A stretch of 41,210 bases of DNA, taken from the IMG/VR virus record IMGVR_UViG_2880406838_000008, one strand, 5' to 3'. A model generated the notes under the pieces. It was given only the letters and a program-made list of their open reading frames with translations. It did not search any database and had not been told where the DNA came from. Source of the stretch: a virus. Its lineage: Duplodnaviria > Heunggongvirae > Uroviricota > Caudoviricetes. The position numbers were made by a program, and so were the translations under genes. The first letter of the stretch is position 1, and each line of letters starts with the position of its first letter. This document shows, piece by piece, positions 27,679 to 29,974 of this stretch.

Positions 27679-27854
27679 CTGATGTATGTCTCCGTCACCG
27701 CCGACAGAAAATGAAAGTAAAGGAAAACAAAAAGCCGCCAGTGTCACCCACTGACGGCCAACTCCGGGAGCCGTGATTATGGCATTCAGGCTCTGCTAAA
27801 AATGCCAGATAACATTCCGGCCCCCCTGGTTCAGGTTATAAATGACACAATATC

Positions 27855-27974
27855 TTGACAACATCCGTCACTGTCTGTCAGAAAATATACCGCCAGGCAT
27901 AAGTATCATGTGAAATCCAACTATCCTTTTGAGCCAGCACCTCCCCACCGAAAGTCAGTGCTGGCTGTTTTTTT
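27855..27974 (+). ncRNA. candidate small RNA unit 1 (TTGACA promoter element plus intrinsic terminator)
   Basis: TTGACA at 27855-27860 followed by ctgtctgtcagaaaat; downstream hairpin AGCCAGCAC-(17 nt)-GTGCTGGCT and T-run at 27932-27974; no ORF. Antisense to the late operon. Confidence 0.3.
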
Positions 27975-28022
27975 CCTTAATAAAGCATCTGTAACTGAAA
28001 CAATCCGCATATTGATAATATA

Positions 28023-28122
28023 TTGACAGGCATCATTGCTGTCTGTGAAAAATAAGTCTCTACAAACATACAAGGCCTTTTAGCCAGCGTCTTCTTTCAG
28101 GTCAGTCGCTGGCTCTTTTTTT
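28023..28122 (+). ncRNA. candidate small RNA unit 2 (paralogous to unit 1)
   Basis: TTGACA at 28023-28028 with the same ctgtctgtgaaaaat element; CA-rich body (ctctacaaacatacaagg); hairpin AGCCAGCG-(17 nt)-CGCTGGCT plus T-run ending 28122, abutting the nanS-p stop. Confidence 0.3.
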
Positions 28123-28123
28123 A

Positions 28124-29974
28124 TTATGCTGCCGGTGCATTTATCTCCAGCACCAGACTTTCTATCTCAACGCCATACGCTGCATTTTTTGTAACATCCG
28201 TCAGCGTCAGCGCATTCAGTCCCAGTGTCAGACTGTCTTTTATAACCTGGAATGCCGGGCCAGCCACTCCATTCAGTTTCGGAGTAACCGTGGCACTGCC
28301 GGCGGTGAACACCAGCTCCAGCGTCTGCCAGTCGTTACCGTAATCGCCGAACTCCCCCAGCTTCGTGTTTCCGGCTTTCCTGTGATGCATCAGATTCACT
28401 CTGCCGTCAGTGGTCTGAGTGAAGTACGACATCAGGAACGGATTACCGGTACCCGTCATCGCCACACCATCAGGAACGGGAGCATCCGTATACAGATAAA
28501 TCCCCAGCCCGAACTGATTGTTGGTCAGTGCGCCTGACAGGCGGAACTTACAGGTCAGTCTGCCGCCCTGTGTCAGCAGGGTAATTGCGTCATCCACCGG
28601 ATGCGTCAGGGACCAGGTTTTATTGCTCTGCTTGGTGATCTTAAATACACCATCTGACAACTGAATTCCGCCATCCTTAATGCTCCAGCCCTGCGCAGCA
28701 GCCTCTCCGGCTGCCGGCAGCAGGGAGATTGTGCGAACGGACGTATCTGCAGACGGACCCGATGGCGTGTTGCCGCCGGGCGAGGGTTTGATTTCCGGTG
28801 CCTTACCACTGATGAAGGCTGAGGTGCGCCCGGCTGCGTTCAGAATAGCGGTTGCCAGACGATCCGGAATAATGCTCCTGCGCGCCCATGAACTGAAATG
28901 TGTCGGGCGGTTTGATGATACCTGGTTTCCATTCGTTCTCGATGCCGCACCGTAATATCCTGATGCCGGAATATCCGGATCTTCTGCCGGCGCGTTAGTG
29001 GCGGTATTGACGCCGTTACCGTCTGTCATGAAGGGCACAAAATAAACGCCCTCACTCTCCCTGTTTTTGTACGCCCCGTAAATGGTGTTGTACTGGGTGC
29101 CGTAGGTATTTTTCCAGTAATACGTCGTGTCACCACAAATCCACGGCACATCTGCAGCACTGCCACCATGGCACTGCGCGTTAAACACGGAGAGGTCAGC
29201 ACGAAACTGTGTCAGCATGGCTGTAAACAGCGCAGGTTGCTGTGCGTGGGTGGCGGCGCTCATGTCAAACTCTCCCTGCATCCAGCAGACGGCCAGCAGA
29301 ACGTTTTTGGGATTTTTCTGCAATGCCGCTTTTGTGCGGGAAATCAGGTCCTGATATAACGGTTTACCCACACCCCAGCGTGCCGAATCCTGGCTGGCCC
29401 CCGTGTCCGCACTGAATGTCCCCTCCGCGCCCTGGGTGAATGCCGAACCACCACGACAGCATGGTACCAGCAGGATCCCCGCGTTATTCGGGATATACGG
29501 AAGCAGTTTTTTGGCAATATGTAAGCCCTGGCCGACACAGCCGTACTGCCCTTTGCTCAGGTCTGCCTTCGGATGATTCAGCGTACTCATATCCTGCACA
29601 TCATGCAGGCAGTGGTCGGCCGGAATAATATCGTTATATCTGCAGGCAGCCCCGCCCGGCGTAACTGTACTGCGGCGCGCCAGCTGTTTAATGCGCGGAT
29701 CCGGAGCATCGTATGAATCCGGCAGCGGAAGCCCTTCACCGTAAGCCATGGCATTGGACTGCCCGGCCAGTACGATGACGTAGTACCAATCCGGCTCAGT
29801 TGCACCACTGACCACCACATCACCTTCTGCTGTAATCGCCTGCATCAGGGTATAAGGGGTTATGGCCACCGGACTACCAAACGGCTGCCAGCCCTCTTTC
29901 AGTTTGTGTGTCAGCTTTTCCGCAAGGTCTGACGGCGACGCCGCCCTGACAACATCATAATGTTTAAATGTCAT
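28124..29974 (-). CDS. nanS-p: prophage sialate O-acetylesterase (NanS-p-like; N-terminal DUF1737-like domain plus SGNH hydrolase)
   Basis: 616 aa; SGNH/GDSL-type block VLAGQSNAMAYGEG; first gene downstream of the PR'/tR' leader, as recalled for nanS-p in lambdoid prophages of EHEC. Confidence 0.8.
   Translation of the reverse strand: MTFKHYDVVRAASPSDLAEKLTHKLKEGWQPFGSPVAITPYTLMQAITAEGDVVVSGATEPDWYYVIVLAGQSNAMAYGEGLPLPDSYDAPDPRIKQLARRSTVTPGGAACRYNDIIPADHCLHDVQDMSTLNHPKADLSKGQYGCVGQGLHIAKKLLPYIPNNAGILLVPCCRGGSAFTQGAEGTFSADTGASQDSARWGVGKPLYQDLISRTKAALQKNPKNVLLAVCWMQGEFDMSAATHAQQPALFTAMLTQFRADLSVFNAQCHGGSAADVPWICGDTTYYWKNTYGTQYNTIYGAYKNRESEGVYFVPFMTDGNGVNTATNAPAEDPDIPASGYYGAASRTNGNQVSSNRPTHFSSWARRSIIPDRLATAILNAAGRTSAFISGKAPEIKPSPGGNTPSGPSADTSVRTISLLPAAGEAAAQGWSIKDGGIQLSDGVFKITKQSNKTWSLTHPVDDAITLLTQGGRLTCKFRLSGALTNNQFGLGIYLYTDAPVPDGVAMTGTGNPFLMSYFTQTTDGRVNLMHHRKAGNTKLGEFGDYGNDWQTLELVFTAGSATVTPKLNGVAGPAFQVIKDSLTLGLNALTLTDVTKNAAYGVEIESLVLEINAPAA

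Follow-up and report, generated by a model that had tools for sequence, protein, structure and literature searches.

The nanS-p/holin interval and its two plus-strand units

The window, the whole 41,210-nt stretch of Caudoviricetes DNA analyzed here, carries a late operon on its minus strand. A nanS-p-type sialate O-acetylesterase gene (28124-29974, minus strand; Pfam SASA, DUF1737 and DUF6645; annotated by RefSeq at the identical E2863 locus) lies upstream of a late gene for a class II (P21-type) holin (27472-27678, minus strand; Pfam Phage_holin_2_1, E = 1.5e-32; RefSeq). With the annotated holin start at 27678 as boundary, the gap between them is 445 bp; a first-pass annotation of this DNA had given 375 bp, a size that holds when the longest GTG-initiated ORF is taken as the holin but not with the annotated start. 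Two units, hereafter units 1 and 2, occupy this gap on the plus strand, convergent with the late operon and opposite to both neighbors, and a single nucleotide separates the nanS-p stop codon from the U-run of unit 2.

Both units follow the same order: TTGACA is followed after 10 nt by CTGTCTGT, then come an A-rich -10-like box and a short body, and a hairpin with seven T residues closes the unit. The hexamer and downstream element that the first-pass annotation had described as shared were found in the promoter-like regions of unit 1 (27855-27886, plus strand; -35 TTGACA at 27855-27860, 10 nt, then CTGTCTGTCAGAAAAT at 27871-27886) and unit 2 (28023-28053, plus strand; -35 TTGACA at 28023-28028, 10 nt, then CTGTCTGTGAAAAAT at 28039-28053). 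The combination TTGACA-N10-CTGTCTGT occurs at two sites in 41 kb, which are units 1 and 2 alone, against a chance expectation of ~0.29 matches in the window with up to two mismatches allowed. Global alignment of the units gave a score of 32, compared with -6.4 ± 4.2 for dinucleotide shuffles (z = 9), with 82 of 130 columns identical; promoter boxes and terminators are conserved and the bodies have diverged. The earlier proposal of two similar tandem units therefore stands on both alignment and motif, each above chance, although its body of about 50 nt per unit does not apply to unit 2, where the body is only ~28 nt.

A simple sigma-70 scan accepted neither the unit 1 nor the unit 2 promoter because the -35/-10 spacing comes to 19-20 nt with GAAAAT/AAAAAT as the -10 boxes. 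The unit 1 promoter motif is invariant in the PP2 and PP5 loci of E2348/69, and we infer that both regions function as promoters.

The unit 1 hairpin pairs AGCCAGCAC (27932-27940) with GTGCTGGCT (27958-27966) on the plus strand, followed by T7 at 27968-27974; that of unit 2 pairs AGCCAGCG (28082-28089) with CGCTGGCT (28107-28114), also on the plus strand, followed by T7 at 28116-28122. A 17-nt loop, initially assigned to both, is present in unit 1, whereas the unit 2 fold has an 8-bp stem plus an inner extension. The predicted fold of unit 2 has a free energy of -16.0 kcal/mol (z = -3.5), and the unit 1 terminator, a 9-bp stem with its large loop, fails a terminator scan. Termination in the plus orientation only was borne out for both hairpins, with a U-run on the plus strand and an A-run preceding the hairpin on the minus strand, and the GenBank record of phage 434 independently annotates both as terminators in the same orientation.

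Unit 1 is a PasA homologue

Unit 1 corresponds to PasA, an 85-nt Hfq-dependent sRNA that Northern blots and RIL-seq have shown in EPEC E2348/69, where it is abundant under virulence-inducing (activating) conditions and destabilized without Hfq (PMC8550237). Carrying the PasA coordinates (NC_011601, 743499->743415, E2348/69) over by alignment places the 85-nt unit 1 transcript at 27890-27974 on the plus strand. Unit 1 is identical to E2348/69 PasA at 74/85 positions, with the 3′ half almost identical, and to the Sakai Sp12 copy at 83/85; the published Northern probe matches it at 24 of 25 positions. The published seed, GCCAGCACCU, is identical in unit 1 (27933-27942) and lies in the terminator 5′ arm. 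Mapped on unit 1, the published 3′ end falls on the final U of U7 (27974), and the published 5′ end lies 29 nt downstream of the -35. The transcripts predicted from sequence by the first-pass annotation were within ~5-7 nt of published ends.

Unit 1 and E2348/69 PasA accordingly have in common their length, seed, homology through the terminator (a 9-bp stem followed by U7), and position and strand, opposite the sialate esterase and holin-lysozyme genes between which they lie in lambdoid prophages, as in E2348/69 PP2. They differ in the first ~40 nt, where unit 1 follows the Sakai Sp12 variant. Unit 1 is probably the common ‘PasA-2’ variant, a label that we take from the description in a 2026 preprint (doi 10.64898/2026.05.13.724894).

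In the EPEC RIL-seq data, pasA has 41 partners, of which 36 are CDS or 5′UTR and none is an sRNA, and a fraction of 0.94-1 of its fragments takes the RNA2 position; PasA forms chimeras via Hfq with almost only mRNA partners (PMC8550237).

Unit 2 matches the EcOnc51/52 element

PasA has a minor 3′ end at 743264 that yields a 236-nt RNA (Table S6, PMC8550237). This end maps to ~28125 in the window, and unit 2 matches the 3′ part of this published ‘minor’ transcript. The inter-unit spacer (27975-28022, plus strand) is transcribed solely within the 236-nt read-through form. In the 2026 preprint, the long form of PasA is called a 5′ precursor (doi 10.64898/2026.05.13.724894), a description contradicted by the original table, in which it is a 3′ extension (PMC8550237).

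Unit 2 also coincides with two Hfq-CRAC peaks of EHEC Sakai, EcOnc51 and EcOnc52, reported in three datasets with a terminator flag (PMC4104026, Table S2). To place them, the coordinate change of the Sakai genome record was calibrated on AsxR, AgvB, Esr41 and STnc100, giving a shift of 0 in Sp4 and of +128 to +140 beyond 1.27 Mb. After calibration, EcOnc52 maps to 28057-28134 and EcOnc51 to ~28046-28131. Unit 2 is identical to Sakai Sp12 at 65/66 positions, and Sp12 equals Sp4 over unit 2. PMC8550237 gives EcOnc51/52 as homologues of its combined PasA entry; in contrast, our mapping places both on unit 2 and not on the 85-nt PasA, and the EHEC Hfq-CRAC peak list has none on unit 1. Overall, the two units are sRNA genes that experiments in pathogenic E. 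coli had already revealed, as PasA and the EcOnc51/52 element, and the first-pass view of them as sRNA genes antisense to the late operon is upheld by the Hfq-dependent PasA seen on Northern blots and by the Hfq peaks on unit 2.

In prophage Sp4 of Sakai, unit 1 is replaced by IS629, with unit 2 and its TTGACA box intact at the junction. The EcOnc51/52 peak scores are near-equal (1.09 M and 1.03 M), which fits reads shared by identical Sp4 and Sp12 copies; because these copies are identical, their CRAC reads are indistinguishable, and the Sp4 copy, devoid of unit 1, is only possibly expressed. A 50-aa minus-strand ORF at 27921-28073 was rejected as a gene: it has no Pfam match and no RefSeq annotation, and the DNA it covers is missing from PasC loci and has given way to IS629 in Sp4.

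Where unit 2 begins can be estimated in two ways. The spacing between -35 and 5′ end in unit 1 predicts a start at 28058, and the 5′ edge of EcOnc52 lies at 28057. Most likely, unit 2 has an independent start at ~28057 from its duplicated promoter, giving a putative transcript of ~66 nt (~28057-28122, plus strand, with an approximate 5′ end) whose 5′ region (28057-28081) is CA-rich and predicted to be single-stranded.

In EPEC, the RIL-seq element ‘pasA.E2348C_0688.IGR’ has 5 partners and 119/54 chimeric fragments and is always RNA2 (PMC8550237); its RNA2 segment, 743267-743294, covers the unit 2 U-run and the 3′ half of the hairpin before it. The 119 chimeric fragments of the unit 2 region compare with 4983 for PasA, and this share of ~2% fits a unit 2 that is largely the tail of the minor read-through RNA. 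The duplex predicted between unit 2 and the escD segment from the chimeras was weak, with z = -1.4 at best, and rests on the palindrome AGGCCU.

Distribution of the units in E. coli prophages

Across ~680 of 5426 complete E. coli genomes, 2411 places carry unit 1 and 2285 carry unit 2. The units thus occur in ~1/8 of complete genomes, with several copies as the usual case, and are nearly confined to prophages of EPEC, EHEC and STEC. Records at least 99% identical make up 600 of 773 for unit 2 and 117 of 692 for unit 1. One plasmid copy of unit 2 was examined and proved to be an IS-bounded remnant of the nanS-p 3′ end, which offers no separate context for the unit.

A promoter-motif scan of IMG/VR listed many chance singles; loci were retained where they had a matching terminator, and the architecture counts describe a sample. 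In that sample, at least 20 loci carry the tandem arrangement with a fixed spacing of 167-169 nt, and unit 2-only loci are also present. A contig scan with AGCCAGC-N12-30-GCTGGCTNTTTTTT, a badly chosen pattern, gave only generic terminators from unrelated phyla among the matches listed. RefSeq leaves the units unannotated. No Rfam model matched them at gathering thresholds in a search of the whole window, and over 27700-28200 at E ≤ 10 only chance-level matches to AaHKsRNA20, snoR99 and SNORD45 appeared, all with E > 5; the family to which the two units belong is absent from Rfam.

Interpretation of the locus

Taken together, the data make it very probable that the interval holds tandem paralogous genes for Hfq-binding sRNAs that run convergent to the late operon, with expression from the resident prophage. 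At near-identical loci, published experiments have shown that PasA is transcribed, depends on Hfq and has mRNA partners, that the 236-nt form exists and that Hfq binds at unit 2. Unit 1 would give rise to an 85-nt PasA-family sRNA with its seed GCCAGCACCU in the terminator 5′ arm. Because the unit 1 terminator is weak (9-bp stem, 17-nt loop), some polymerases would pass it and stop at the unit 2 terminator, producing the 236-nt RNA as a minor species. From its own promoter, unit 2 would yield an RNA of ~66 nt with a different, unstructured CA-rich 5′ region, and its terminator, placed at the nanS-p stop codon, would bar antisense transcription from entering nanS-p. Regulation by either RNA is putative.

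Possible, if rather doubtful, is a reading in which unit 1 is the sole gene and unit 2 is a decayed duplicate that serves as a back-up terminator, halting PasA read-through ahead of antisense entry into nanS-p, with all of its Hfq signal coming from the 236-nt RNA. The authors of PMC8550237 indeed treat the unit 2 region as a minor 3′-extended PasA with the same 5′ start, and the low share of chimeric fragments agrees with this. Leakage is moreover expected from the unusually large loop of the unit 1 terminator and its failure in the terminator scan. Unit 2, however, keeps the whole promoter-like block in addition to its hairpin and is more strongly conserved than unit 1 at the ≥99% level. Unit 2 and its TTGACA box also survive loss of unit 1, both in Sakai Sp4 and in the unit 2-only loci, and the EHEC CRAC peaks fall on unit 2, where their 5′ edge meets the start expected from its own promoter.

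It is unlikely that the RNAs act mainly in cis, as perfectly complementary antisense to the late transcript from nanS-p to the holin, damping leakage of the holin or lysis genes in lysogens or directing late mRNA processing. The units do overlap fully the convergent intergenic RNA from nanS-p to S, and a late-strand RNA fragment (743494-743512) appears in RIL-seq. As read from the sequence, GGUGCUGG at the 3′ end of the nanS-p mRNA (28147-28154, minus strand) complements the PasA seed core CCAGCACC, and the published list of PasA target-motif sites includes the homologous ones of E2348C_0688 and E2348C_1246 (PMC8550237, Table S7). The 41 partners of PasA, however, are mostly mRNAs encoded elsewhere, in the core as well as the accessory genome, and most lysogenic cells keep the late operon silent. 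Action in cis could coexist with action in trans.

Unlikely as well is that unit 2 forms, from its own promoter, a separate and as yet unnamed Hfq-dependent sRNA whose conserved, unstructured CA-rich 5′ region is a seed different from that of PasA, perhaps directed at a GU-rich partner such as a core sRNA, and that PasA, unit 2 and PasC form a recombining cassette. Seeds and terminators would then be shuffled among prophages, and unit 2 would pair under conditions outside those of the EPEC RIL-seq.

We consider it improbable that either unit, or the two together, acts as an anti-sRNA sponge of the AgvB and AsxR kind, with the CA-rich 5′ region of unit 2 sequestering the GU-rich R1 seed of GcvB. 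The idea draws on the CA-rich and predicted unpaired state of that region, and on the anti-sRNAs carried by the same prophages: AgvB itself lies ~2 kb from the units in this window (30126-30187; RF02702, 96.5 bits). A duplex of -13.0 kcal/mol is possible between unit 2 and GcvB R1 (74-90), but it is no better than shuffles (z = -0.17), whereas the AgvB control duplex with GcvB reached -19.4 kcal/mol (z = -2.5). The stretch ACATACAA, singled out at first as the pairing site, needs C at 28071, which is T in 26 of 26 other unit 2 copies fetched, and this common T variant pairs with GcvB more weakly (-11.1 kcal/mol, z = +0.40). Unit 2 lacks CACAACA, the consensus of GcvB targets. In the per-RNA summary of the EPEC RIL-seq, pasA, pasC and the unit 2 region have 0 sRNA partners (PMC8550237); in the GcvB row the count of sRNA partners is one, and SroC is the partner in the gcvB-sRNA chimera seen in Table S3 (PMC8550237). 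Neither the GcvB duplex prediction nor the RIL-seq counts support the units as antagonists of a core sRNA such as GcvB or FnrS. A covariance-model search against known phage sRNA families, which the first-pass annotation had suggested, gave no match to the Rfam AgvB and AsxR models (RF02702/RF02703) in 27700-28200, even at E ≤ 10.

That the hairpins act only in the minus-strand late mRNA, for instance as a 3′ stabilizer after nanS-p, with the plus-strand genes coincidental, can be set aside: both fold well on that strand (-23.7 and -15.6 kcal/mol), but plus-strand RNAs with exactly these ends are seen by Northern blot, RNA-seq, RIL-seq and CRAC, the U-runs are confined to the plus strand, and for unit 1 the published Northern blot and Hfq dependence refute it.

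Comparison with known systems

The tandem paralogous sRNA genes that we favor resemble AgvB and AsxR (RF02702, RF02703) in being short, Hfq-bound, prophage-encoded and convergent with the late operon, and in combining a variable 5′ part with a conserved 3′ part. In contrast, AgvB and AsxR occupy the slot upstream of nanS-p and match the units neither in sequence nor by covariance model, and their partners are sRNAs, whereas those of the PasA type are mRNA and IGR only.

PasC, a further published sRNA (PMC8550237), resides in the same type of locus as that in the window, and its terminator adjoins the nanS-p stop as that of unit 2 does, but PasC is a single unit and not a tandem. Its promoter and 5′ body are identical to unit 1 at 36/45 positions, and its 3′ part to the unit 2 terminator at 34/43. 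Neither unit was accepted as PasC itself, as full-length comparison with the 78-79-nt PasC found 62/86 positions identical in unit 1 and 53/85 in unit 2. Judged by these alignments, PasC is a chimera of a unit 1-like promoter and 5′ body with a unit 2-like terminator. The previously unremarked tandem paralogy and the PasC chimera are all that our analysis adds to published knowledge. For work on Pas sRNAs, the PasA locus becomes a tandem paralogue pair, EcOnc51/EcOnc52 the second member of that pair, and PasC a unit 1/unit 2 chimera, while the picture of the RNAs themselves is left unchanged by all three.

Adjacent paralogous sRNA genes, each with its own promoter and terminator, are known from PrrF1/PrrF2, with PrrH, in Pseudomonas aeruginosa and from OmrA/OmrB. 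The 2026 preprint states that PasA copies are never tandem (doi 10.64898/2026.05.13.724894), so the PrrF-like parallel goes unrecognized there. PrrF1/PrrF2 and OmrA/OmrB have no sequence relation to the units, which differ further in being phage-borne and antisense to an operon. What units 1 and 2 share with the PrrF1/PrrF2-PrrH type is that a longer RNA with both members of the pair arises when the first terminator is read through.

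Two tandem plus-strand units between nanS-p and the holin gene

Two similar units, antisense to the late operon, lie on the plus strand in the gap that separates nanS-p, a sialate esterase gene (28124-29974, minus strand; Pfam SASA, DUF1737 and DUF6645), from the class II holin gene (27472-27678, minus strand). Unit 1 comprises TTGACA (27855-27860), CTGTCTGTCAGAAAAT (27871-27886), a 9-bp stem with a 17-nt loop (27932-27940 / 27958-27966) and a T7 run (27968-27974). The same order recurs in unit 2, with TTGACA at 28023-28028, CTGTCTGTGAAAAAT at 28039-28053, an 8-bp stem with an inner extension (28082-28089 / 28107-28114) and a T7 run (28116-28122) whose end is separated from the nanS-p stop codon by 1 nt. 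Within the 41-kb window the composite promoter-like motif occurs only at these two units (~0.29 matches expected), and their mutual alignment scores 9 SD above dinucleotide shuffles. Both hairpins carry a U-run on the plus strand only, and the curated phage 434 record annotates both as terminators in the same orientation. Together, these observations confirm the paired units and plus-only terminators proposed in the first-pass annotation. Its dimensions required revision: the gap measures 445 bp with the annotated holin start, not 375 bp, and the body of unit 2 is ~28 nt rather than ~50 nt.

A simple sigma-70 scan rejected both promoters on account of the 19-20 nt between -35 and -10; the TTGACA boxes would act as -35 elements with an A-rich -10. 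In both units, a U-rich stretch, hairpin and U7 can be read; work by Otaka, Ishikawa and Aiba reportedly identified this arrangement as the module through which sRNAs bind Hfq. Over its full length, the intergenic region shares 92-100% identity with Stx1-converting phages, H-19B, YYZ-2008, phage 434 and ~700 complete E. coli genomes.

Other features of the region were also noted. On the late strand, an 11-bp GC-rich hairpin followed by TTTTGTTTTC (27733-27759, minus strand) lies directly 5' of the holin ribosome-binding site; the phage 434 record lists it as a third terminator, which Q-modified polymerase would presumably traverse. Both units are enclosed by a 19-nt inverted repeat (79% complementary; 27826-27844 / 28138-28156). 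Its right arm includes CCAGCACC, an octamer identical to that of the PasA seed; the repeat may be fortuitous or may fold the late mRNA into a long-range stem. A 50-aa TTG-initiated ORF across both units (27921-28073, minus strand) has no Pfam match or RefSeq annotation, and is unlikely to be a gene since it covers sequence that is missing from PasC-type loci and, in Sakai prophage Sp4, has given way to IS629.

Unit 1 is a homologue of PasA

The prophage sRNA PasA of EPEC E2348/69 is encoded between E2348C_0688 and E2348C_0689 (NC_011601, 743499->743415, minus strand), was detected with probe GCCAGCACTGACTTTCGGTGGAGAG, and occurs as a major form of 85 nt and a minor form of 236 nt ending at 743264 (Table S6, Pearl Mizrahi et al. 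2021, PMC8550237). Aligned to the window, the E2348/69 locus carries both units in the same synteny, and the PasA ends transfer to 27890 and 27974. The Northern probe matches the unit 1 hairpin at 24/25 positions. Overall, unit 1 is identical to E2348/69 PasA at 74/85 positions, with most differences in the first ~40 nt, and to the copy in Sakai prophage Sp12 at 83/85. The clustering of differences fits the description given of the common 'PasA-2' variant in the Zhu, Shabalina and Storz 2026 preprint, so unit 1 is probably PasA-2.

The second position in a chimera is typical of Hfq-dependent sRNAs. PasA, confirmed by Northern blot, is almost always the second RNA in RIL-seq chimeras, loses stability when Hfq is missing, and is expressed chiefly under conditions that activate virulence; 36 of its 41 RIL-seq partners are CDS or 5'UTR, and none is an sRNA (PMC8550237). 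The published seed GCCAGCACCU is kept at 27933-27942, and its complement GGUGCUGG is found in the nanS-p 3' end (plus-strand 28147-28154), counterparts of which in E2348C_0688 and E2348C_1246 are among the PasA target-motif sites (PMC8550237).

Unit 2 corresponds to EcOnc51 and EcOnc52

The 236-nt minor PasA shares the PasA 5' end, and its 3' end maps to ~28125, the unit 2 terminator. The RIL-seq element 'pasA.E2348C_0688.IGR' (743267-743294) also falls on unit 2, where it covers the hairpin's 3' half together with the U-run. This element was always the second RNA, in 119 and 54 chimeric fragments under two conditions, with five partners (four CDS or 5'UTR, including the LEE gene escD, and one IGR or 3'UTR; no sRNA); EcOnc51 and EcOnc52, Hfq-CRAC peaks of EHEC Sakai (Tree et al. 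2014), are named as EHEC homologues in the same study's table (PMC8550237).

Table S2 of Tree et al. 2014 is numbered on an earlier version of the Sakai sequence, so we calibrated its coordinates on Rfam matches in NC_002695.2. At Sp4 (1.18 Mb), an STnc100 match and its convergent partner peak fit a shift of zero, whereas AsxR (1.27 Mb), Esr41 (1.42 Mb) and AgvB1 (1.94 Mb) point to an offset of +128 to +140; EcOnc06 (3.49 Mb) agrees with that offset and disagrees with zero. The table thus equals NC_002695.2 at 1.18 Mb and runs ~128-140 nt below it from 1.27 Mb onward; uncorrected, EcOnc51 would fall wrongly on unit 1. After the shift, EcOnc52 (Sp4) occupies window positions 28057-28134 and EcOnc51 (Sp12) ~28046-28131, so both represent unit 2 and not the 85-nt PasA. 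Their peak scores are nearly equal because the Sp4 and Sp12 copies are identical across unit 2. The earlier proposal of sRNA genes was therefore right, unit 1 being homologous to the Northern-validated, Hfq-stabilised PasA and unit 2 being the Hfq-bound EcOnc51/52.

Unit 2 was also seen on large E. coli plasmids (~100 places). On pZ1323HEC0423-2 (4001-4158), it adjoins a short nanS-p 3' remnant amid IS100, IS3, IS1 and IS66 fragments and an nleG gene.

Possible independent transcription of unit 2

On balance, we lean towards unit 2 starting independently of unit 1. The entire promoter-like block is duplicated, not the hairpin alone, and if unit 2 has the same 29 nt between -35 and 5' end as unit 1, its start would fall at 28058, next to the EcOnc52 5' edge at 28057. 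Unit 2 is more highly conserved across E. coli genomes than unit 1, and loci with unit 2 only exist; in Sp4, where IS629 has taken the place of unit 1, the sequence is homologous to the window from 28001 onward, leaving unit 2 and its TTGACA box on their own. EHEC CRAC peaks coincide with unit 2, and the listing has no peak at unit 1 (Tree et al. 2014). Against this, CRAC reads multi-map, expression of the Sp4 copy is putative, and in EPEC the unit 2 region yields ~2% of PasA's chimeric fragments. Alternatively, unit 2 would serve mainly as a back-up terminator for read-through of a leaky unit 1 terminator, whose 17-nt loop fails a terminator scan.

Pairing with GcvB is not supported

The first-pass annotation had suggested a prophage anti-sRNA pairing with the core sRNA GcvB. 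Membership of the AgvB/AsxR families was rejected, as neither Rfam model matches either unit; the AgvB model scores 96.5 bits elsewhere in the window (30126-30187). With RNAduplex, the unit 2 5' region targets the R1 region of E. coli GcvB at -13.0 kcal/mol, versus an average of -12.6 kcal/mol for shuffles of the unit 2 25-mer (z = -0.17), while the AgvB 5' region reaches -19.4 kcal/mol (z = -2.5). Moreover, the 'ACATACAA' stretch depends on a C at 28071. All 26 other copies of unit 2 that were retrieved have T there, which weakens the pairing (-11.1 kcal/mol). In the EPEC conditions sampled, RIL-seq lists no sRNA partner for pasA, for pasC or for the region of unit 2. A single sRNA partner is counted for GcvB, and the gcvB-sRNA chimera seen in Table S3 is with SroC (PMC8550237). 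A GcvB sponge role for unit 2 is thus not supported.

The promoter-spacer element CTGTCTGT(C) shared by both units (27871-27879 and 28039-28046) also occurs inside GcvB (…CCCUGUCUGUCCAUAG…), probably by coincidence. It lies upstream of both the mapped unit 1 5' end and the predicted unit 2 5' end.

PasC and family architecture

E2348/69 prophage PP5 carries a single unit, PasC, abutting the nanS-p stop. Over the promoter and first 45 nt, PasC matches unit 1 at 36/45 positions and is not alignable with unit 2 (20/46), whereas its terminator and downstream flank are closer to unit 2 (34/43) than to unit 1 (29/45), making PasC a unit 1/unit 2 chimera. Unequal recombination between the tandem's homologous 'TTTT(G)AGCCAGC' segments would leave such a unit; in the reverse history, a PasC-like single unit may have been duplicated into the tandem. 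Among the matches listed from the IMG/VR sample, the tandem was present at a constant spacing of 167-169 nt in at least 20 loci, a PasC-type single unit in at least 12, unit 1 only in at least two and unit 2 only in at least two. The 2026 preprint relates PasA to PasC and states that copies of PasA are not tandem (doi 10.64898/2026.05.13.724894); its BLAST criteria evidently missed the paralogous unit 2. In its account, mature PasA arises by 5'-end cleavage of a longer transcript, in contrast to the one 5' end and two 3' ends of Table S6 (PMC8550237).

Other RNA elements in the window

Just upstream of nanS-p, an AgvB anti-GcvB sRNA (30126-30187, plus) and an STnc100/PasD-type sRNA (30188-30378, minus; 143 bits) are adjacent and convergent, the 'convergent sRNA pair' layout described by Tree et al. 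2014 (PMC4104026); the esterase gene therefore has sRNA genes on both sides. A DicF copy lies at 33782-33833 (plus, 72.5 bits). Two ALIL frameshift pseudoknots (34660-34776, plus; 38922-39038, minus), with equal scores on opposite strands ~4 kb apart, suggest two inverted copies of an IS3-family element, one annotated IS1203 in the identical E. coli E2863 record.

Mechanism and relation to known sRNAs

Experiments on near-identical loci have shown that plus-strand transcription yields an 85-nt RNA whose 3' end is the unit 1 U-run, that read-through extends to the unit 2 U-run (236 nt), and that Hfq binds both 3' modules; the partners are mostly mRNAs. Beyond this, unit 2 transcription may start on its own, and CTGTCTGT may be a regulator site behind condition-dependent expression. 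The unit 2 terminator would shield nanS-p from antisense transcription. A cis effect of the RNAs on the late transcript that they overlap is also possible. The units themselves are known from earlier work, under the names PasA/PasA-2, the long PasA form and EcOnc51/52. What is added is only curatorial: the locus is a tandem of paralogues, EcOnc51/52 belong to its second unit, and PasC is a chimera.
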